From: a phage | Strand: one strand, 5' to 3' | NCBI GenBank assembly: GCA_014816185.1 | Contig: GCA_014816185.1_4095.1 | DNA length: 64,000 nt | Shown: piece by piece, positions 3,433 to 60,943 of the stretch | Layout: every line of letters begins with the position of its first letter | How positions within the stretch are numbered: position 1 is the stretch's first letter | The notes under the pieces: model-generated | The model's database searches: none | Told to the model about the DNA's origin: nothing | The model's input: the letters and a program-made list of their open reading frames with translations, nothing else | Made by a program: the position numbers and the translations under genes

Positions 3433-5172
3433 ATGAGTTGGAAACGACATATGACAGTGGGAAGGTCTAAACTATCGACCATCCCGAATCAGTCCAGTAA
3501 TAGCAATAAATCAACAGGAACGAAAACAAATTTCGCTTCCTATCTTCCTGTTGTATATAATGGATTGGCAAACCGTACTGAGCGTTATAGTCAGTATGAG
3601 CAAATGGACCAAGATCCTGAAATTAGAACTGCATTGAATATAATTGCTGACTTTTGTACCCAAAGTACTGAAGATTTTGGTTTACCATATAAAATCAAAT
3701 ATAAAGATGATATTGGTGATACTGAAGTAACTACTATTGAAGATCGTTTAGATGCATGGACTGAACAAAATGATTTTAAAACACGAATGTATGAAATTGT
3801 GCGTGGTCTTCTGAAATATGGTGATCAATTTTTCATTCGAGATCCAGAAACATTCGATTGGTATTGGGTAAGTCCCAAAAATGTTGAGCAAGTATTTGTT
3901 AACGAAGCCACTGGTAAAACACCAGTAATTTATTATATACGTGACGTATCATTAAATTTGAAAGATAAAGTTTTTAGTAACCTTCAAGTAGGATTTGATA
4001 AAACCGCTTATCCAGGAGCTATTCCGACAACAATGGGTGGTGGTGGTTCAGTAGCTGCGGGTGGTGCATCTGGTTTTACAAGTCAAGGAAATACTGCTGA
4101 TCCATTCAGTACTAACGGTCAATTAGACGTTATTCCTGTTGGTGCAGAACACGTAATTCATCTAACGCTAAATACAGGACAAGATGGGGTATGGCCTTTT
4201 GGTACTAGTATACTTGAGGACGTATTTAAAGTCTATAAGCAAAAAGAACTTCTGGAAGATAGTATCATAATTTATCGTGTACAACGTGCACCTGAGCGTC
4301 GTGTATTTAAAATTGATGTTGGTGATATGCAAGCACATCAAGCGATGGCTTATGTTGAAAGATTTAAAAATGAAATCCACCAGCGTAGAATACCTTCAAA
4401 CAAAGGTGGAAGTACTTCATTAATGGATGCAGCATATAATCCATTAAGCATTTTAGAAGACTACTTTTTCCCACAAACTTCTGAAGGTCGTGGTTCAGAT
4501 GTTCAAACATTACCAGGCGGTGATAACTTAGGACAAATTGATGACTTACGTTATTTCAATAATAAATTGATTCGTGGTCTTCAAATACCAGCTTCTTATC
4601 TACCACAAGGTCCAGATGATGGTGGTGTTTCATTATTTGGTGATGGTGCTACACAAGCTATGGCAAGTGAATTGCGATTCAATAATCAATGTATGCGTTA
4701 TCAACGTTTAGTTGCAAAACATTTTGATGCTGAATTCAAAAGATTTATGGTTAAAAATGGATATAACATTAGTACTTCATCTTTTGAAGTTATTATGAAT
4801 CCACCTATTAACTTAGCTTCTTATCGTAAAGCTGAACTAGATGCTAAACTAATTAATACATATCTTCCTCTTAATGACTTGCCTTATATGGCGAAACAAA
4901 CAATTCTTGAAAAAATGGGCTTTTCTAAAGCTGATATTGTTAAGAATGAACAAATGTGGTTACAAGAGAATCCACAAGATGGTTCCCAACCTTCTGGTGG
5001 TGAAGAAGATTCCGCTGGATTACAGTCTGTTGGTATTGATGCTCCAAATGATCCTGGAATGGATCTTGGTATTGATGGAGAAGGTAATTTGGAAAGTGCT
5101 GATGCCGAATACCAAGAGCAACAGAGTGGAAGTGGTGGTTTCAACCCTAATAATTTAGGCAATTCTTTTTAA
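3433..5172 (+). CDS. gp20: portal vertex protein (T4 gp20-like)
   Basis: 579 aa; segment IIYRVQRAPERRVFKIDVGDM ... DVQTLPGGDN ... RYFNNKLIRGLQIPASYLPQ aligns with remembered T4 gp20 ([22 protein letters not shown] ... VDTLPGADN ... RVPLSRIPQ). Confidence 0.9.
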   Translation: MSWKRHMTVGRSKLSTIPNQSSNSNKSTGTKTNFASYLPVVYNGLANRTERYSQYEQMDQDPEIRTALNIIADFCTQSTEDFGLPYKIKYKDDIGDTEVTTIEDRLDAWTEQNDFKTRMYEIVRGLLKYGDQFFIRDPETFDWYWVSPKNVEQVFVNEATGKTPVIYYIRDVSLNLKDKVFSNLQVGFDKTAYPGAIPTTMGGGGSVAAGGASGFTSQGNTADPFSTNGQLDVIPVGAEHVIHLTLNTGQDGVWPFGTSILEDVFKVYKQKELLEDSIIIYRVQRAPERRVFKIDVGDMQAHQAMAYVERFKNEIHQRRIPSNKGGSTSLMDAAYNPLSILEDYFFPQTSEGRGSDVQTLPGGDNLGQIDDLRYFNNKLIRGLQIPASYLPQGPDDGGVSLFGDGATQAMASELRFNNQCMRYQRLVAKHFDAEFKRFMVKNGYNISTSSFEVIMNPPINLASYRKAELDAKLINTYLPLNDLPYMAKQTILEKMGFSKADIVKNEQMWLQENPQDGSQPSGGEEDSAGLQSVGIDAPNDPGMDLGIDGEGNLESADAEYQEQQSGSGGFNPNNLGNSF

Positions 5173-5193
5173 ACATAAATAACAGTGTATAAG

Positions 5194-5220
5194 AATGAGG
5201 GTTTATTTTTACCCTCATTT
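5194..5220 (+). terminator. terminator-like hairpin after portal gene
   Basis: Stem AATGAGGGT/ACCCTCATT with 8-nt loop; only a short T run follows. Confidence 0.35.
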
Positions 5221-5245
5221 ATAATGCATATTTCAAGGAGATCAA

Positions 5246-5473
5246 ATGTTAAAGGACATCTTTGAATCTAGCAGTGATTCAATGTACGACCCTGAAGATG
5301 ATCAGAACGTATATAAAATTACTGATTCCAGAAAACCGAAACTAACATTACAAGTATTAAACAACTTAAGAAAGTACCGTGAATTTAAAGCACATGAAGA
5401 ACAACGCCGCAAAAATGTGGTTGCAGTTGTTTATGCCGCTGCACCAACTGGTGACGGTTCTGGGTTAATGTAA
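5246..5473 (+). CDS. small prohead core protein candidate (gp67/gp68 position)
   Basis: 75-aa ORF between portal and protease genes with RBS AAGGAGA; assignment by position only. Confidence 0.45.
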   Translation: MLKDIFESSSDSMYDPEDDQNVYKITDSRKPKLTLQVLNNLRKYREFKAHEEQRRKNVVAVVYAAAPTGDGSGLM

Positions 5474-5574
5474 ATCAAAAATCGCACTTTTTAAAGCTTT
5501 TAAAAAAGGCGATTTTATTCAGTACTAAATAATATCATACTTTATACGAATGTAATATATCTATGGAGGATATA

Positions 5575-6423
5575 ATGGCGAATTTAAAACTACTACAAGA
5601 AGCAATTGCGGCGTTTGCAAATGGCGAACAAGATATTGCTGATAAAAAAATGCGTAAGTATTTCGTTGAGCAAGCTCAAGAAATTAACAAACAACTAGAA
5701 GAAAGCATGGAAGATGAAGACGACGATGAAGATTGTGAAGTCGAAGTTAAAGTCAAAGATGAAGAAAAGCTTGACGAAGATTTTGATGTACAACCAGACG
5801 AAGGTCTAAATGCTGAAATCGAATACACCCTTGGTGAAGAAGATGAAAGTGCAGAAGAAGAAGTTGAATTCTCTGCTGATGCAGATGGTGACGGTGAAGA
5901 CGATGTTGACGTTGAAGTGAAAGCTGATGCTGATGTTCCTTCCGAAGACCAATGGGAATCAATCCAAGATGCTTTCCGTGGCCTACAACAAATGTTTGAT
6001 GAAATCGGTGACGGTGAAGTTGATCTAGATTCTGAAGAAGAAGTAGAAGATAGCGAAGAAGAAGTTGGCGTTGACGGTGACGACGAATTTGCTGATGTTG
6101 AATTCGGTGATGAAAAATTCGGTGAATCCTTCAAACTAGAAAAAGTTGCTCCAGTTGATAAGAAAGAAAAAGCTGGCACTCATTCCAAATCTCCAGTAGC
6201 ACCAGAAGCTAAATCTCCAGTAGCAGGAGCAGAGCCAGTTAAATTCGCTAAGAAAACTGACCAAGCACCACTACTAGACCTAGATGATAAATCTGTTCTA
6301 CCAAAAGATAGTCTAGATCTTGGTAAAAATGCTCGCGGTGAAATGAAAGATGTTAAAGCACCAAAAACTACTGCATCTAATTCTAAATCACCACTAAGCA
6401 AAGCACAACCTAAACTAAAATAA
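5575..6423 (+). CDS. highly acidic prohead core/scaffold-like protein
   Basis: ORF 5563-6423; likely start ATG 5575 after GGAGG; long Asp/Glu-rich tracts; sits between portal and prohead protease; upstream ACTAAATA late-promoter-like motif. Confidence 0.6.
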   Translation: MANLKLLQEAIAAFANGEQDIADKKMRKYFVEQAQEINKQLEESMEDEDDDEDCEVEVKVKDEEKLDEDFDVQPDEGLNAEIEYTLGEEDESAEEEVEFSADADGDGEDDVDVEVKADADVPSEDQWESIQDAFRGLQQMFDEIGDGEVDLDSEEEVEDSEEEVGVDGDDEFADVEFGDEKFGESFKLEKVAPVDKKEKAGTHSKSPVAPEAKSPVAGAEPVKFAKKTDQAPLLDLDDKSVLPKDSLDLGKNARGEMKDVKAPKTTASNSKSPLSKAQPKLK

Positions 6424-6443
6424 ATATCTGAAAGGAGATCATT

Positions 6444-7067
6444 ATGAGTAGTATGATTCGTGAATGGTCTTCATTCAATGATTCTAAAGTTGTTTTGGAA
6501 CATCGTGATAATGGATTTGGTGGGCGTGACTGCTATCTTCGTGGTATTGCTATTCAAGCCGACCAACGAAATTTGAACGAGAGAATTTACCCTTTATCTG
6601 AAATTACAAGGGCAGTAAATAACATGAACCAGCGTTTAGCTAAAGGTGAAAGCATTCTTGTTGAATGTGACCATCCAGAAACACTAACTATTAACCTAGA
6701 CCGAGTAGCAGCAATGATTACTAAGGTTTGGATGGAAGGTGCTAATGGTATGGCAGAAATCAAACTACTTGATACTGCACATGGTCAAAATATCCGTAAA
6801 ATGCTAGAGGCTGGTGTAAAACTTGGTGTAAGTTCTCGCGGTTCCGGTAACGTTGATTATAATGGAATAGTTTCTGATTTTGAAATTATCACTATTGATA
6901 TTGTTGCTCAACCTAGTGCTCCAGAAGCATACCCAACAGCGGTATTTGAATCTCTGATGAGTAAGTACGGATCACCTTGTAATAGTTCTAAAAAAATCAC
7001 TGAATCTAAAAAAGTAAATAATTTAGATTCTGAAATATACGATTTTTTCAAGAAATTAAAAGGTTAA
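6444..7067 (+). CDS. gp21: prohead core scaffold protein and protease (T4 gp21-like)
   Basis: 207 aa; RNERIYP, GVSSRGSG and IVAQPSAPEAYPT match remembered T4 gp21 (KRLYP, GVSSRGLG, GPSAPDAWVT). Confidence 0.9.
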   Translation: MSSMIREWSSFNDSKVVLEHRDNGFGGRDCYLRGIAIQADQRNLNERIYPLSEITRAVNNMNQRLAKGESILVECDHPETLTINLDRVAAMITKVWMEGANGMAEIKLLDTAHGQNIRKMLEAGVKLGVSSRGSGNVDYNGIVSDFEIITIDIVAQPSAPEAYPTAVFESLMSKYGSPCNSSKKITESKKVNNLDSEIYDFFKKLKG

Positions 7068-7078
7068 CATTTTAAAAA

Positions 7079-7086
7079 TATAAATA
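7079..7086 (+). promoter_or_regulatory. T4-type late promoter TATAAATA
   Basis: Exact TATAAATA 48 nt upstream of the gp22-like start; followed by a 9-bp hairpin. Confidence 0.45.
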
Positions 7087-7133
7087 TCTGTATGTTGAAG
7101 TACAGATATTTCAGTACTTAAAGGAGAGAACGA

Positions 7134-8249
7134 ATGTCTAAATTAGAAAAGCTTCTAAAAGAATCATCTCTTTCTGATGAGGCAAAACAGCTAATTCAGG
7201 AAGCATGGAATGAAGAAAAGAATACACTAGCCGCAGAGATGCGTGAAGAAATGAAAGGCCGTTATCAGCAAGATTTGGCTGAACTAACCGAAGGTTTGAA
7301 CACTATGGTTACTCAAGTCATTGCTGAAGAAATGGGTGCTGTATATGAAGAGAAAAAACGTCTCGTTGAAGATCGTGTAACTCTACGTAAAACACTAAGC
7401 AATTTCTCTGCGTTTTCAAACTCTGTTTTGGCTGAAGAAGTTAAACAAATGCGTAAAGAACGTAAGCATCTTCATGAATGCATGGGTAAATTCGTTAATT
7501 TTTCTAACGGTATCCTAGCAGAAGAGCTAAAAGAATTCCACACTGAAAAACGCCAACTAGTAGAAACTCGCGTTAAACTACTTGCTGAAGGTTCACGTCA
7601 AATTGCTGAAGCTCGTAATAACTTCATCAAACGTACATCTGAAAGTGCTGCTAAATATATTGCAGAAACCACTCAGAAGAATCTATATGCGTTGAAACAA
7701 GATCTAGTGGAAGCAAAACAAAATATGTTTGGTCGTAAAATCTTTGAAGCATTTGCTCAAGAGTTTAATGTCAAACAATTTAATGAAAATTCATTGCTAC
7801 GTTCCCTAACTGAATCAATTAAATCTAAAGAAGATGAAATTGCTCAAGTTAAGCAAGAACTACATGAAACTGCTAATGCCGTTAAAGCTGCTAAAACCAA
7901 ACTACGTATTATGGAAGATGCACAAGCACGTAATGCGATTATGTCTGAACTAGTAAAACCACTAACTGCACAGCAAAAACAAATTATGGAATCCCTTCTA
8001 GCTACTTCACCTACTGAAAAGCTTAAAGAAGATTTCAGCAAGTACCATAAGTCAGTACTTAACGGTACTAAAGTAAATGAATCTGCTACCACTCGTCAAG
8101 CAGTTCAGTCTTCCGCTAAGAAAACTCTTGCAGAAGGTAAAGTAATCACTGGCAACCGTCAGGCTATTGTTGAAAGCGAAGAAATGACCGCTGACGATAT
8201 GGCATTCCTAAAAGAACTCGATGTTCTTTCAGGTATCAATAAAAAATAA
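7134..8249 (+). CDS. gp22: prohead scaffold protein (gp22-like, coiled-coil)
   Basis: 371 aa, Glu/Lys/Ala-rich heptad-like sequence between protease and major capsid genes; RBS AAAGGAGAG. Confidence 0.7.
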   Translation: MSKLEKLLKESSLSDEAKQLIQEAWNEEKNTLAAEMREEMKGRYQQDLAELTEGLNTMVTQVIAEEMGAVYEEKKRLVEDRVTLRKTLSNFSAFSNSVLAEEVKQMRKERKHLHECMGKFVNFSNGILAEELKEFHTEKRQLVETRVKLLAEGSRQIAEARNNFIKRTSESAAKYIAETTQKNLYALKQDLVEAKQNMFGRKIFEAFAQEFNVKQFNENSLLRSLTESIKSKEDEIAQVKQELHETANAVKAAKTKLRIMEDAQARNAIMSELVKPLTAQQKQIMESLLATSPTEKLKEDFSKYHKSVLNGTKVNESATTRQAVQSSAKKTLAEGKVITGNRQAIVESEEMTADDMAFLKELDVLSGINKK

Positions 8250-8287
8250 ACATTTTAAAGCATTTTAATAATCAAATTTTTCAGTTC

Positions 8288-8295
8288 TATAAATA
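8288..8295 (+). promoter_or_regulatory. T4-type late promoter TATAAATA upstream of major capsid gene
   Basis: Exact TATAAATA 46 nt upstream of ATG 8341; part of an 18-nt block shared with 5526-5541. Confidence 0.5.
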
Positions 8296-8340
8296 ATATC
8301 ATACTGAAAAACGAATATAACATCTTTAAGGAGATATATA

Positions 8341-9516
8341 ATGTCACAACTACTAAATGAATCCAAATGGGTAGCAGTAAAAGAGAAACTAGTTGAAGGT
8401 CTACAGGGTACTCGTAAGTCTGTAATGGAAACTGTTCTTGATAACCATCGTAAAGTTATGCTAACTGAATCCGCAACTTCTGGTGCAACTACCGCTGGTA
8501 ACATCGCTACTCTAAACAAAGTGATTCTACCAATTATGCGTCGTGTAATGCCAACCGTTATTGCTAACGAAATCATCGGTGTTCAACCAATGACTGGTCC
8601 AGTTGGTCAGATCCACACCCTACGTGTGCAATATGCTGATAACGCACCTGGTGTTATCGCTGGTGAAGAAATGCTTTCTCCATACAAAATCGCTAAATCC
8701 TACTCTGGTGATCTAAATGCGGATAATAGCAACCCACAAGCTGCTCCTACTAGCCAACTAGAAGGTACTATGGGTCGTCGCGTTAACATCCGTATTCTAC
8801 GTGAAACTGTTGAAGCGAAATCTCGTCGTCTATCTGCACGTTGGACTGTTGAATCTGCACAAGATGCTCAATCCCAACATGGTGTTGACGTTGAAGCAGA
8901 ACTAATGGCTGCAATCGCTCAAGAAGTTACCGTAGAAATCGACCAAGAGCTACTAAGCCGTCTACGTGCACTACCTGGTGCTGCTGCTGTAACTTATGAC
9001 CAATCTAAAGTTACTGGTGTTGCAACCTTCGTTGGTGATGAGCACGCTGCTCTAGCAACTCTAATTAACCGTCAAGCAAACGAAGTTGCTCGTCGTACTA
9101 AGCGTGGTGCTGCAAACTGGGCTGTTGTTTCCCCAACTGCACTAACCATTCTACAATCTGCTACTACTTCTAGCTTTGCACGTACCACTGAAGGTACTTT
9201 CGAAGCACCAACTAACGTTAAGTTTGTAGGTACTCTAAACAGCACTATGCGTATTTTTGTTGATACGTATGCTTCAGATGCCGAGGACATTTTGATTGGT
9301 TATAAAGGTAATGCTGAAACTGATGCTGGTGTGTTCTATTGCCCATACATCCCACTAATGGCTTCCGGTACTGTAATGGACCCTAACACTGGGGAACTCG
9401 TTACAACTTTCTTAACCAGATACGGGTATGTTCAGTTGACCGATAGCACCAGTTCACTAGGTAACGCTGCTGACTACTACAGCAAAATCGCTATCAAAAA
9501 CGTTACTTTCATGTAA
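8341..9516 (+). CDS. gp23: major capsid protein (T4 gp23 family)
   Basis: 391 aa; ILPIMRRVMPTVIANEIIGVQPMTGPVGQIHTLRVQY and VEAKSRRLSARWTVESAQDAQSQHGVDVEAEL align with remembered T4 gp23; strong RBS AAGGAGA; strong terminator downstream. Confidence 0.92.
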   Translation: MSQLLNESKWVAVKEKLVEGLQGTRKSVMETVLDNHRKVMLTESATSGATTAGNIATLNKVILPIMRRVMPTVIANEIIGVQPMTGPVGQIHTLRVQYADNAPGVIAGEEMLSPYKIAKSYSGDLNADNSNPQAAPTSQLEGTMGRRVNIRILRETVEAKSRRLSARWTVESAQDAQSQHGVDVEAELMAAIAQEVTVEIDQELLSRLRALPGAAAVTYDQSKVTGVATFVGDEHAALATLINRQANEVARRTKRGAANWAVVSPTALTILQSATTSSFARTTEGTFEAPTNVKFVGTLNSTMRIFVDTYASDAEDILIGYKGNAETDAGVFYCPYIPLMASGTVMDPNTGELVTTFLTRYGYVQLTDSTSSLGNAADYYSKIAIKNVTFM

Positions 9517-9560
9517 TTGTAATCGATTTAAAAGATTTAATCAAGAAATTCAAAACAATA

Positions 9561-9590
9561 GGGACTCTTCGGAGTCCCTTTTCTTTTTTT
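9561..9590 (+). terminator. Rho-independent terminator after capsid gene
   Basis: GGGACTC-ttcg-GAGTCCC hairpin followed by TTTTCTTTTTTT. Confidence 0.8.
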
Positions 9591-9634
9591 ATAATCATCT
9601 AAATACACATAGGTGACATTAAGGAGATCAAATT

Positions 9635-9985
9635 ATGTTAACTGTATACAAATTTAACAAAGAAGAGTACTTAAAGAGTCAGCACTCAAATATAGAAATA
9701 AATGTTCCTTATGGTACGTTAGTTGGATATGATGAAGCCACTGAAACATTGTATTATAATGATGATAGATTGGATTATAGTTTAGATTCTTTCATAGAAG
9801 ATATACTTAATACACATACTGAAGATATGTTGTATGAAGAATACATAGATCATTATAGAGAACGTATGTCGGTGCTGCATTCTGATGCTCCTGTACTAAA
9901 CATAGCACAAGAACCATCGGAATTTCAGCCACATAATCCTTTTCAACGTTTAATTGATATTGGTTTAAAATTCACTATTAGTTGA
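9635..9985 (+). CDS. hypothetical protein (116 aa)
   Basis: ORF with RBS AAGGAGA; no recognisable motif. Confidence 0.5.
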   Translation: MLTVYKFNKEEYLKSQHSNIEINVPYGTLVGYDEATETLYYNDDRLDYSLDSFIEDILNTHTEDMLYEEYIDHYRERMSVLHSDAPVLNIAQEPSEFQPHNPFQRLIDIGLKFTIS

Positions 9986-10024
9986 TAGATAAATATCTCC
10001 ATATTAATGATGGAGATTGAATCT

Positions 10025-10333
10025 ATGTCACAGATATGTTATGTTATAATAAACTCTGCATGGCCTGACTATGTTAAGATTGGTTTCACTTCTAAATCTG
10101 AAATGACAGAGCGATTGAGAACGTATCAGACAGCTACCCCGTTTCGTGATTTTGAAGTTTATCATGAAGTTCACTTTGAAGACGCACGTTTAGCTGAAAA
10201 AGAGATACATAAAAGGCTTAAACAAATGAATGCAACTAGACAACCAAACACAGAGTGGTTTAAAATGTCTAAAAAGATAGCAGCAAACATCATTGATTCT
10301 GTGTGGGATGATATGGATAACGACTTGCTATAG
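10025..10333 (+). CDS. T5orf172 (GIY-YIG-like) domain protein
   Basis: ORF 10007-10333, start ATG 10025 after GGAGA; CYVIINSAWPDYVKIGFTS ... RLRTYQTATPF ... EWFKMS matches the T5orf172/MUG113 domain pattern. Confidence 0.65.
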   Translation: MSQICYVIINSAWPDYVKIGFTSKSEMTERLRTYQTATPFRDFEVYHEVHFEDARLAEKEIHKRLKQMNATRQPNTEWFKMSKKIAANIIDSVWDDMDNDLL

Positions 10334-10373
10334 GAATAAATATAGTATATATTAATCATAAAGGGATTTATAC

Positions 10374-11984
10374 ATGAGCATAAGTTTTAATAACCCATTG
10401 GATACAATGACCAGTACTGGTGCTAATGGATCTTTAGAACTAATAGTGCTTGGTGGTACACCAACTAACCCAAGACCTATTCGTTTTAATTCGTCATCAG
10501 TTATTATACCAGTACAAACGTTACCTACTGGTGAACAAGGTGCAATGGTTTTTGATCGAAACGAATTAGTTTTGAAGTATCATAACGGTACAAGTTGGAT
10601 TGCAGTATATGATACTGATACTATTTTGGAACCAATTAGAATTTCATTAGATGAAGTAAACAGAAAATTAAATTTAAAAGTAGAAAGTGTAACATACAGT
10701 AGCAGTACTGTTCCTAGTGCAAGTATTAGTGGAACAAACTTAAACATTGTATTCCCTACTGCTTCTAGTGGTGGTTCTGGTCCAACTGGTCTTTACACTT
10801 CACTTAAACCTGGTGCTATTACACAATATTCATTGACTTCTGGTCAATCTGTTGCTAGTATACGTGAACAAATGTCAGGGCAATCGAATGGACAAAGTGG
10901 ACGAAACGGTTCACAAGGTGCTCCGTGGAAAACGTCTGACGGTTGGTGTTTTGCTGATGGTATGTGGTGGCAATGGGAGGGGGAAAATGGTACAATTACC
11001 AAACAAGTACCAAACCTTAACCAAAACGCGTATTTAAAAGGTATAACAACATCAGGTGTAACTAAAACTGATAGTGTTATTGGTAGTAGTGGTAACATTA
11101 GTGGAACTGTATTGAGTGTTGCCCAGTTACCATCACACTCATTTAGTTTTAGTGGAACCACTGGTGCTGCTGGTCGTCATGGTCATAGTCAAGCACTAAA
11201 AGGTATGGACCGTAGTGGTCTAAATGCGTTAACTTCAAGTAATGATAACGGTATACCAACTGTAATCAATAACATTAACGAAGCACCAGACCACATTCAC
11301 TCATTTAGTGGAAACACTAACACACTTGGTGGAAACCAACCACACTATCATGGTATTAGCAACATTGATGTGGAACACTTTAACGTTGCATACCTATATA
11401 ACATTGCTGAATCTAACGTCGCATTGAGTGAAAAAGTTGCAAACACTCGTTATGTACTAAAAACTGGTGATACAATGACTGGTTCATTGACTATTGCAAA
11501 CAGTGCGTCAATTAAGTCAAATGATACATCATTAGTTCTATATTTCCGTAACGCAAGCGGTGGTGAGCGTGCGGCAGTGTATCATAACTCTTCAAATAAT
11601 ACATTGAGATTACGTTCCGGTGGAGCAGAAGTTACTGTAAACTCTTCTGGTACTTTAGCTGCTCCATCATTAACTGTTTCTAACAACTCAGCTACTGTTG
11701 GTGGTAAAAATATTGTTCGTTCAATTAACGGTACTGCTGCTGATGCTAGTGGCAACGTTACTTTGCAAATTAGTACTAATAACGTACAAAGTATTCGTTT
11801 GAGTGCACGTATTGAAACAAGTAAAATACCTGATTCTTCATGGACATATACACCAGAAGGTGCATTTATGGATGGCGTATGGATTTCTGTTAATGGTAGT
11901 TCAGGCACTCACTTAGAACGAATTAGTTATCGCTATGTTCAAATGCAAATAAATGGTAACTGGGAAACAGTACGTCAACAATAA
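10374..11984 (+). CDS. tail fibre-like protein with HxH motifs
   Basis: 536 aa, Ser/Thr/Gly/Asn-rich; HxH motifs (GRHGHSQ, DHIHSF, PHYHGI) reminiscent of metal-binding HxH repeats in T4 gp12/gp37; followed by a Tfa-like chaperone. Confidence 0.55.
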   Translation: MSISFNNPLDTMTSTGANGSLELIVLGGTPTNPRPIRFNSSSVIIPVQTLPTGEQGAMVFDRNELVLKYHNGTSWIAVYDTDTILEPIRISLDEVNRKLNLKVESVTYSSSTVPSASISGTNLNIVFPTASSGGSGPTGLYTSLKPGAITQYSLTSGQSVASIREQMSGQSNGQSGRNGSQGAPWKTSDGWCFADGMWWQWEGENGTITKQVPNLNQNAYLKGITTSGVTKTDSVIGSSGNISGTVLSVAQLPSHSFSFSGTTGAAGRHGHSQALKGMDRSGLNALTSSNDNGIPTVINNINEAPDHIHSFSGNTNTLGGNQPHYHGISNIDVEHFNVAYLYNIAESNVALSEKVANTRYVLKTGDTMTGSLTIANSASIKSNDTSLVLYFRNASGGERAAVYHNSSNNTLRLRSGGAEVTVNSSGTLAAPSLTVSNNSATVGGKNIVRSINGTAADASGNVTLQISTNNVQSIRLSARIETSKIPDSSWTYTPEGAFMDGVWISVNGSSGTHLERISYRYVQMQINGNWETVRQQ

Positions 11985-17271: not shown

Positions 17272-17279
17272 TATAAATA
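17272..17279 (+). promoter_or_regulatory. T4-type late promoter TATAAATA
   Basis: Exact TATAAATA directly followed by hairpin GGGGAACA-cta-TGTTCCCC (17282-17300). Confidence 0.45.
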
Positions 17280-17335
17280 ACGGGGAACACTATGTTCCCC
17301 AAATTAGTTTGATTTAAAAAGTAAAGGAATACAAA

Positions 17336-35430: not shown

Positions 35431-36486
35431 ATGAACGCTGTACAAAACATAATGGCACAAATTATGAATGATCCAGTACCTGCGATTGGTACATGGTCAC
35501 AACACAACTGTCCAGCTTGTGTGTTCAGAGGACATTCAAGGCCGGATACAAAGCACCGTGGTAATCATATGTTCAATGCAGATGGTTCCGTTTCATATAA
35601 CTGCTTTAACTGTAGTTTAAAAACTGGTTGGCAACCAGGAAAATATATGAGCAAAGATATGGAGTCTTTGCTCATTTCTTTTGGTGCACAAGATAAAGAA
35701 ATAGAATTAGTTAAGTTTTATATTAAAGAAATGGTTGACAGTGGTGATTTTGCTGCACAAGAAACTGTTGCATCAAAATTGTATGACCGAGTAACAGTAC
35801 GTGATTTGCCATCAAATGCAAAAACATTTTGGGAATGGGCTTCTTTACCTGAAGATAAAATTCCACAAGAATTTATAAGTGTTTTGCATAATGTCAATGA
35901 AAGAAACCCATATCTGTTAGACTTAGAATTATATTGGTCACCTAATAAAGAACATAAAATGTATGACAGATTTATTATTCCATATTTCATGAATGGTAAA
36001 ATTATTGGTTATACTGCACGACATAAATTAAAAGATCCTGGAAGTACATACAGGTTCATAAATCAAGTAAGTACTAATATACTATATAACTATGATTTAT
36101 TAAAAGATGAACGAATAAAAACAATTTTAGTATGTGAGGGTCCGTTAGACGCAGCATTAATGGGTGGTGTATCTGCTAATAACTTTAAATTATCAAACGT
36201 ACAGATTGATGTATTAAAAGATGCACAGCAAAAAGGTAAAAAAATAGTTATTGTTCCAGATAGAGATAAAGATGGATTAATAACTATAGACCAAGCACTT
36301 GAAAATGGATTCAGTGTTTCCTTCCCAGACTTTGGTGCTGTAAGAGAAGGTAGTACAATACGTCATATCAAAGACTTTGAAGAAGCTTGTGCACGATTTG
36401 GTAGGTTATTTTGTTTACAATTAATACATGATAGTATAGTAGATGAGCCATTTTATATTAAAGCTCAAACGGATAAATGGATGTAA
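35431..36486 (+). CDS. gp61: DNA primase (T4 gp61-like)
   Basis: 351 aa; N-terminal zinc ribbon CPACVFRGH ... CFNC; TOPRIM-like ILVCEGPLDAALMGG. Confidence 0.85.
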   Translation: MNAVQNIMAQIMNDPVPAIGTWSQHNCPACVFRGHSRPDTKHRGNHMFNADGSVSYNCFNCSLKTGWQPGKYMSKDMESLLISFGAQDKEIELVKFYIKEMVDSGDFAAQETVASKLYDRVTVRDLPSNAKTFWEWASLPEDKIPQEFISVLHNVNERNPYLLDLELYWSPNKEHKMYDRFIIPYFMNGKIIGYTARHKLKDPGSTYRFINQVSTNILYNYDLLKDERIKTILVCEGPLDAALMGGVSANNFKLSNVQIDVLKDAQQKGKKIVIVPDRDKDGLITIDQALENGFSVSFPDFGAVREGSTIRHIKDFEEACARFGRLFCLQLIHDSIVDEPFYIKAQTDKWM

Positions 36487-53860: not shown

Positions 53861-53943
53861 AAGACTAAATGTTATACGTAAATATTTTTGATTTTTAATA
53901 ATAAATAATCAAAAGTGTTTTGTATTATGGAGAAGAATATACA

Positions 53944-55860: not shown

Positions 55861-55875
55861 AATATAGACTTAAAA

Positions 55876-58037
<2,162 letters not shown>

Positions 58038-60904: not shown

Positions 60905-60927
60905 GGGGAACATGGTGTTCCCCTTTT
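60905..60927 (+). terminator. Rho-independent terminator
   Basis: GGGGAACA-tgg-TGTTCCCC followed by TTTTACC; same stem as hairpin at 17282-17300. Confidence 0.65.
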
Positions 60928-60943
60928 ACCAAGAGACAATGGA

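Follow-up and report, generated by a model that had tools for sequence, protein, structure and literature searches.

The protease-scaffold junction

The window analysed here is a 64,000-nucleotide stretch of phage DNA (contig GCA_014816185.1_4095.1 of GenBank assembly GCA_014816185.1). It is assigned to Asteriusvirus: over positions 6000-9600 it shares 99.4% identity with Escherichia phage PBECO4 and 99.2% with phage 121Q, both of them Asteriusvirus jumbo myoviruses of ∼350 kb. Genes for the portal protein, prohead protease, scaffolding protein and major capsid protein form a head-gene block (Table 1). In the spacer between the protease and scaffold genes, a late promoter box of the phage T4 type, TATAAATA, overlaps the 5' arm of a conserved inverted repeat, here called hairpin A. 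The nesting of this internal late promoter in a hairpin is the subject of the present analysis.

A terminator scan found nothing terminator-like in the spacer that separates the protease gene from the scaffold gene; 9560-9579, 3' of the capsid gene, is the first site that is clearly a terminator. We therefore infer that late transcripts from the protease and portal promoters plausibly continue into the scaffold gene.

Table 1. Features of the window discussed in the text, numbered from its first letter.
Feature	Position	Strand	Remarks
Portal gene	3433-5172	+	Head-gene block; followed by two small or acidic genes
Second copy of ATAAATATCTG, putative late promoter	6420-6430	+	24 nt upstream of the protease start codon
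Prohead protease gene (gp21-like)	6444-7067	+	Upstream cistron; its read-through RNA would carry hairpin A
Late promoter box TATAAATA of the scaffold gene	7079-7086	+	T4-type, -10-like; exact match; core ATAAATA at 7080-7086
Hairpin A, 5' arm AAATATCTGTA	7082-7092	+	Overlaps promoter positions -10 to +1
Predicted late transcription start	7092	+	+1 = A; T4 geometry, -13 = T7079
Hairpin A, loop TGTTGAAG	7093-7100	+	8 nt
Hairpin A, 3' arm TACAGATATTT	7101-7111	+	
Hairpin B, alternative and weaker (AAGUAC 7098-7103 / GUACUU 7114-7119)	7098-7119	+	Minimum-energy fold of the leader from 7092
Shine-Dalgarno region of the scaffold gene, AAAGGAGAG	7120-7128	+	GGAG at 7123-7126, ATG at 7134; outside hairpin A
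Scaffolding protein gene	7134-8249	+	371 amino acids; annotated as scaffolding protein in 121Q, Ecwhy_1, A4 and Munch
Capsid-gene hairpin (TTTTTCAGT 8277-8285 / ACTGAAAAA 8303-8311)	8277-8311	+	9 bp
Major capsid gene	8341-9516	+	Head-gene block
Element of the T5orf172 gene (ATAAATA 9989-9995; ATCTCCAT 9995-10002 / ATGGAGAT 10010-10017)	9989-10017	+	
Extended -10 sites of the sigma-70 type	12528, 20056, 25287, 25363, 30539, 35393, 41782, 46095, 48256, 58886		Intergenic

A late promoter within a hairpin

Hairpin A begins 15 nt past the protease stop codon and consists of 11 perfect base pairs, or 12 if U7093·G7100 is counted. An earlier, sequence-only reading of the window had described a perfect 9-bp hairpin at 7083-7108 with a left arm overlapping the promoter. 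The perfect inverted repeat is real and its 5' arm does overlap the box, but it extends over 11 bp (7082-7092/7101-7111) and the positions given for it were off by 1-3 nt, the left arm ATATCTGTA starting at 7084 and not at 7083 (exact positions 7084-7092, with TACAGATAT at 7101-7109). The same reading placed a recurrence of ATAAATATCTG upstream of the protease gene at 6423-6433; a second copy is indeed present, at 6420-6430, and ATAAATA is found at this position in only some relatives. As a repeated element in its own right ATAAATATCTG was rejected, five matches with at most one mismatch against 3.8 expected representing no significant enrichment. Four of these five near-matches lie at putative late promoters, and the sharing of ATAAATATCTG is explained by the promoter core that they have in common.

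The folding-energy calculation proposed in that reading as a check indicates a stable hairpin: 7075-7140 folds as RNA at -13.2 kcal/mol (z = -2.6), with one of 200 shuffles folding as well. As DNA, 7078-7115 reaches -7.3 kcal/mol (z = -5.0), a value as low as which was seen in 0 of 200 shuffles. Inverted repeats with 11 or more perfect base pairs and loops of 3-12 nt are rare, numbering four in the 64-kb window against a mean of 0.3 in dinucleotide shuffles. Two of the three besides hairpin A are obvious bidirectional terminators. Also among the four is the perfect 11-bp repeat ATGAGCAAAGA-tatggag-TCTTTGCTCAT (35647-35675), which lies inside a coding gene (35431-36486). A scan of 5000-10500 against Rfam 15 at a permissive threshold produced no match covering 7000-7200 and only four sub-threshold, chance-level hits elsewhere in that region.

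The box itself had been placed correctly at 7079-7086 by the sequence-only reading, and its interpretation as a late promoter is supported by the positioning of ATAAATA. For the full 8-mer TATAAATA the window shows no enrichment (seven found, 10.2 expected), and the 7-mer ATAAATA was taken as the informative motif instead. It occurs at 16 sites on the + strand, against five on the - strand. Although the window is only 8% non-coding, 14 of the 16 + strand sites precede a gene start on that strand by 18-71 nt. A 50-kb stretch of phage GAP32 has 13 of its 14 ATAAATA sites placed likewise upstream of gene starts. At the scaffold gene the box is kept in all relatives, as TATAAATA in 13 of 15, as CATAAATA in RaK2 and as AATAAATA in the uncultured contig L021.

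ATAAATA late promoters were reportedly predicted in GAP32 by Abbasifar in 2014. The passages of Buttimer et al. (2017) on this motif (PMC5259590) describe ATAAATA upstream of structural genes of phage CBB at 35 sites, and in GAP32 also, liken it to the T4 late promoter and note a gp55-like sigma factor in CBB. A corresponding candidate in 121Q is gene 591, annotated as a late sigma factor, which lies ∼5 kb upstream of the window start and thus outside the window; like its T4 counterpart it adjoins genes of the gp47/46 type. Among PHROG families, 12791 (E = 3e-154) and 234 (E = 8e-18), the latter labelled 'late sigma transcription factor', match it, whereas searches of Pfam and of PDB sequences gave no match. 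The assignment of 7079-7086 as a late promoter is well supported, as well as being a prediction already in the literature, and the box is probably read by the phage's own gp55-like sigma factor.

The window also contains intergenic extended -10 promoters of the sigma-70 type (TGnTAYAAT; Table 1), often with a TTGAGACA-like -35 box upstream. They mark early or middle units interleaved among the ATAAATA late units.

Conservation among relatives

The protease-scaffold spacer was taken from 15 annotated relatives and from IMG/VR contigs. Hairpin A is kept in all Asteriusvirus genomes, in the Munch/fENko group, in Kaldavass/XbC2 (with a 1-nt bulge), in GAP32 and CBB, in Yersinia phage fHe-Yen9-04, Serratia phage BF and Erwinia phage pEa47, and in the uncultured contigs L017-L019; the genera of its carriers include Asteriusvirus, Mimasvirus and Eneladusvirus, and counted by lineage four others besides that of the window have it. 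The more distant L021 (64% protease identity) has a shortened hairpin of 6-7 bp.

For pair counting the spacers were aligned with MAFFT, the rows for L021, Kaldavass and the Munch group being dropped or re-trimmed beforehand. Across 11 distinct sequences of relatives, 99.2% of the stem cells are paired. One pair is compensatory: three sequences have U-A in place of C-G, and two have the intermediate U·G. At four pairs only one partner changes, in each case giving G·U, and one mismatch occurs, in CBB. The loop differs in both sequence and length (7-11 nt) while the stems stay paired. Read on the + strand, all one-sided changes replace C by U or A by G; on the opposite strand they would give A·C mismatches. 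Wobble changes of this type point to a structure in + strand RNA (or in the single-stranded + strand) and not to a protein-binding palindrome.

In RaK2-type phages (RaK2, L006, 4355-4398) the spacer is ∼22 nt shorter than in the window. The box and the 5' arm, as CATAAATATTTGTAT, are kept, but neither loop nor 3' arm is present and the conserved CAGTAC block that follows is missing too, making RaK2 a natural deletion mutant of the hairpin. Since the more distant L021 has the hairpin, the simplest reading is a loss in the RaK2 lineage. In 39 IMG/VR relatives with at most 56% protease identity, neither promoter nor hairpin was found in the protease-scaffold spacer, which measures 5-21 nt in 38 of them and 76 nt in the other (L054). 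As far as these genomes reach, the element is confined to the RaK2-like group.

These comparisons bear on whether hairpin A has any function at all. The 5' arm could be kept as promoter sequence, and the 3' arm could match it by chance or by hitch-hiking in an AT-rich spacer that evolves slowly, a view that would accommodate the viability of RaK2-type phages without the 3' arm, the modest formal covariation and the readiness with which AT-rich sequence forms repeats. It is difficult to reconcile with the rarity of such long perfect repeats (four observed, 0.3 expected), with a loop that diverges freely while the arms stay complementary across several genera and in distant L021, and with the finding that all one-sided stem changes but one keep pairing. 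An absence of function is therefore considered extremely unlikely.

Predicted transcription start and proposed mRNA forms

The T4 late promoter is an 8-bp TATA box at the bacterial -10 position, roughly one turn of the helix ahead of the start (PMC2988020). The cryo-electron microscopy structure of the T4 open complex shows the adenines at -12, -9 and -8 flipped out by gp55 (PMC7892883). These contacts place TATAAATA at -13 to -6. By this analogy, the late start at the scaffold gene would be A7092, the last base of the 5' arm, and the base at the predicted +1 is A in 12 of the 12 relatives examined. A transcript from this position would keep at most 1-2 nt of the 5' arm. The proposal of the sequence-only reading that the late transcript begins with the stem-loop is thus not supported, the 5' arm being made up of promoter bases -10 to +1. 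Since the stem starts at 7082, inside the box, no plausible spacing puts the whole stem into the promoter's own transcript. That RNA would lack the 5' arm, so that hairpin A should form only in RNA started further upstream.

Stem-loops at the 5' end are known stabilisers of mRNA, as in ompA and the T4 gene 32 leader. If late transcription started at or before the base of the stem, the scaffold mRNA could likewise carry a 5' stem-loop, which would modulate initiation or shield the message from decay that depends on the 5' end. The stability and conservation of hairpin A would suit such a role, and at the late promoter ATAAATA at 5175 a conserved hairpin (5193-5220) lies wholly downstream of the predicted start. 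At the scaffold gene, however, the stem begins inside the box core (7080-7086) and the start is expected ∼6 nt past the box, near 7092; to include the whole hairpin, transcription would have to start within the promoter element. We regard this explanation as highly improbable.

On its own, the leader started at the scaffold promoter is predicted to fold at -6.4 kcal/mol into hairpin B, which begins 6 nt from the predicted 5' end. Hairpins A and B are mutually exclusive because they share the GUAC of the 3' arm of A. Equivalents of hairpin B are predicted in every relative except RaK2 (-5.9 to -7.3 kcal/mol); its stem is 100% pairable in 11 relatives but shows no covariation, so that hairpin B is no more than a possible fold of the leader.

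The predicted start also coincides with the AUG of a nine-codon mini-ORF (open reading frame) whose UAA stop codon (7119-7121) adjoins the Shine-Dalgarno sequence, a coincidence that is probably due to chance. Leaderless translation of this mini-ORF from AUG 7092 was rejected, the AUG being absent in ph0011, in A4 and in all other genera.

Other late promoters

Two neighbouring late promoters are nested in hairpins in like manner. The loop of the capsid-gene hairpin contains TATAAATA (8288-8295), and the predicted +1, A8301, lies 2 nt before its 3' arm. In nine relatives this hairpin has two compensatory pairs (A-U to U-A and C-G to U-A) and 94.9% of its cells are paired, with one of 500 shuffles as good.

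The second case precedes a gene with a T5orf172 domain, which is mobile-element-like and GIY-YIG-like in some annotations. Its start codon is probably ATG 10025, and the mechanically assigned start at 10007 is probably wrong. The hairpin, whose 5' arm is overlapped by ATAAATA, covers GGAGAT, a well spaced Shine-Dalgarno sequence for ATG 10025, and its stem covaries, appearing as CTTCC/GGAGG in Munch and as CCCCAC/GAGGGG in GAP32, CBB, fHe-Yen9-04 and BF. A precedent comes from the T4 genes e, soc, 49 and I-TevI, each preceded by a hairpin with its 5' strand supplied by a late promoter and the ribosome-binding site in its 3' strand, so that translation is confined to the late-promoter transcripts (Uzan & Miller, 2010; PMC3014915). 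Judged by its sequence, the T5orf172 element looks like a full match to this I-TevI-type design, with translation expected only from the late-promoter transcript.

To compare late promoters across the window, the pairing that straddles each predicted start was measured; the alternative measure, the difference in folding energy between read-through and promoter-initiated RNA, is confounded by upstream terminators. Start-straddling pairing at the 14 putative late sites sums to -100.6 kcal/mol, compared with -49.5 ± 9.6 kcal/mol in shuffles. Ten of the 14 sites reach -6 kcal/mol or lower, compared with 25% of other intergenic positions (p = 0.004), and the sigma-70-type promoters resemble the background.

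Individual sites differ in geometry. Past the portal gene, ATAAATA at 5175-5181 is followed by a 10-bp hairpin, GAATGAGGGT/ACCCTCATTT, whose position is kept with unrelated stems in Munch (GTTCACTTC/GAAGTGAAC) and in GAP32 (TTCGTTCA/TGAACGA); this hairpin could be a true 5'-leader stem-loop. The stem GGGGAACA...TGTTCCCC occurs twice, at 17282-17300 and near 60915 (regions 17272-17300 and 60915-60933). The first copy is directly 3' of a TATAAATA box, lacks a T-run and extends across the predicted start; the copy near 60915 is followed by TTTT and is terminator-like. The ATAAATA sites at 53901 and 55896 lie within the loops of long hairpins in the regions 53880-53920 and 55870-55925, the latter inside a terminator-like stem, AAAAACTCCAAGAT...ATCTTGGAGTTTTTTT. 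In GAP32 (L062, 31105-31140), a strong terminator hairpin, AAAAAGACAGCATATGCTGTCTTTTTT, comes immediately after ATAAATA. The G+C core of this hairpin would be kept in a transcript from the box, which suggests either that the box is not a promoter or that the unit is self-attenuating.

It is conceivable, but unlikely, that RaK2-like late promoters are systematically placed in start-straddling hairpins, giving for every late gene folded read-through mRNAs and unfolded mRNAs from its own promoter that could be sorted genome-wide for processing, decay or translation, or that, in a group that seems to lack gp33 and gp45, hairpins in the non-template DNA strand aid opening by the diverged gp55-like sigma factor. 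At the scaffold gene, the repeat might similarly act as DNA, serving as a palindromic operator bound by a dimeric regulator of the late promoter, or forming a cruciform or single-strand hairpin that aids opening, loosely like the hairpin promoters of phage N4. The repeat overlaps the promoter, its single-stranded DNA fold is strong relative to shuffles (z = -5.0), start-straddling repeats are enriched at late promoters, and activation may be unusual in this group, for which the relevant passages in the literature report no gp33 or gp45 homologues. Nevertheless, the substitutions fit pairing in + strand RNA and leave the DNA half-sites unequal, and the variable spacer between the arms (7-11 nt) is a poor fit to a fixed dimer site. 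Furthermore, no common DNA geometry emerges: the box contributes to the 5' arm at the scaffold gene, is looped out in the capsid-gene hairpin and precedes the stem at 17273. A role as a DNA element thus seems very improbable.

Function of hairpin A

Taken together, these results suggest that hairpin A forms between two cistrons of the polycistronic head-gene mRNA and is superimposed on an internal late promoter; we put the probability of this interpretation at roughly 0.55. Transcripts from the scaffold late promoter (+1 A7092) would lack the 5' arm and begin with a leader that is open or folded into the weak hairpin at 7098-7119. Read-through transcripts from the upstream portal and protease late promoters would contain both arms and form a hairpin of about -12 kcal/mol. 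Hairpin A would accordingly not be a 5' cap structure of the scaffold mRNA. In the read-through RNA it could instead mark a boundary, either by hindering 3'-to-5' decay or processing or by acting as a weak pause site or attenuator, which would help to set the protease and scaffold messages at different levels, and the internal promoter beneath it would boost scaffold transcription. A boundary or attenuator function seems the most likely one.

A related possibility is that hairpin A is a weak intrinsic terminator or attenuator of protease transcription ahead of the next promoter, where it would lower read-through and promoter occlusion. Its location 15 nt past the protease stop codon, followed by UAUUUCAGUACUU, would allow this, and several late promoters lie within or next to terminator hairpins, for example those at 55896 and 53901. 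However, hairpin A was not called in the terminator scan, having fewer than three G-C pairs and no run of at least five U, whereas the clear terminators of the window, such as that at 9560-9579, have G+C-rich stems followed by T4-T8. None of the annotated relatives marks hairpin A, although G17 and Munch annotate terminators nearby. The case for hairpin A as a terminator is thus not convincing, and we consider this explanation unlikely.

Translational discrimination of the kind known from T4 e, soc, 49 and I-TevI would have the hairpin block scaffold translation from read-through RNA while copies from the scaffold promoter are translated. A late promoter that encodes the 5' strand of a hairpin is the defining layout of this mechanism and is present at the scaffold gene; the same phage has the exact design at T5orf172, where the 3' arm is the Shine-Dalgarno sequence, and the mutually exclusive hairpins A and B make the two mRNA forms differ next to the ribosome-binding site. 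Against this, the 3' arm reaches only to 7111, leaving 11 nt to GGAG and 22 nt to the AUG. The predicted unpaired probability from the Shine-Dalgarno sequence to the AUG is 0.46-0.76 in read-through RNA and 0.52-0.70 in promoter-initiated RNA, with no consistent difference between the two forms. Masking of the scaffold ribosome-binding site by hairpin A was rejected on these grounds. In addition, the scaffold gene and the genes upstream of it are all late head genes, with no obvious need to silence read-through. Translational discrimination is therefore regarded as quite improbable here.

Several observations weigh against the interpretation of hairpin A as an intercistronic boundary. The stem is AT-rich, with two or three G-C or G·U pairs, and there is no clean U-tract. 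In the covariation test 36 of 500 shuffles score as well as hairpin A, so that covariation in these alignments counts as moderate and not strong evidence. Conservation of the 5' arm could partly reflect promoter function alone, because RaK2 retains the arm without its partner, and the loss of hairpin A in RaK2 implies that its role is modulatory and dispensable. In the 50 kb of GAP32, the start-straddling test shows the same trend at a borderline p = 0.056. The relevant passages of Buttimer et al. (PMC5259590) report that no gp33 or gp45 homologues were found in CBB, and late initiation may accordingly differ from that in T4; the gp55-like sigma factor of 121Q, lacking Pfam and PDB matches, appears very diverged. 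Finally, the literature on Asteriusvirus, the RaK2-like phages and PA5oct offers motif predictions and short-read RNA sequencing but no mapped late start sites or other mapped ends of transcripts, 5' or 3', so that both the start site and the read-through are inferences.

If the predicted start is correct, the scaffold gene of these 350-kb phages is expressed as two mRNA forms that differ at the protease/scaffold junction. The coordinates given here provide concrete targets for mapping transcript ends in RaK2-like phages. Hairpin A by itself is a modest conserved cis-element, and the current understanding of late transcription is unchanged by it.

Comparison with known systems

Intercistronic stem-loops that block 3'-to-5' exonucleases or mark processing sites are known from the malE-malF REP element and the pap operon. 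Like these, hairpin A lies shortly past a stop codon within an operon, lacks a good U-tract and separates cistrons, here protease and scaffold, that are needed in very different amounts. It differs in that its stem is AT-rich and overlaps an internal promoter. With Rho-independent terminators it shares the position of a stem-loop past a stop codon followed by a U-containing stretch, but only two of its 11 pairs are G-C and its tail, UAUUUCAGU, has no U run, in contrast to the terminator at 9560-9579.

The closest parallel in layout is that of T4 e, soc, 49 and I-TevI. In both, the late box contributes to the 5' arm (TATAAATA at the scaffold gene), RNA started upstream folds and RNA from the promoter itself lacks the 5' arm. 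In T4, however, the 3' arm holds the Shine-Dalgarno sequence or the AUG, and the hairpin silences translation of early or middle read-through RNA, whereas the scaffold-gene hairpin stops 11 nt short of GGAG and would be carried by read-through RNA that is late head-gene mRNA too. The predicted ATAAATA late promoters of GAP32 and CBB have the same motif and the same placement before structural genes in the same phage group, and the scaffold-gene promoter of the window is an orthologue of the sites predicted there. The passages on the motif in the CBB paper (PMC5259590) report the motif alone and do not mention promoter-overlapping hairpins or their conservation.

The promoter motif, as a published prediction, and the nesting of a promoter in a hairpin, as in the classic T4 cases, are thus already known. 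New are a conserved promoter-in-hairpin arrangement that lies off the ribosome-binding site, the recurrence of such nesting at nearby late promoters in a group of jumbo phages, and the correction of the mechanism proposed in the sequence-only reading. If the interpretation given here holds, the T4 idea of a late promoter in one arm of a hairpin extends to distant jumbo phages in a form that does not act at the ribosome-binding site.

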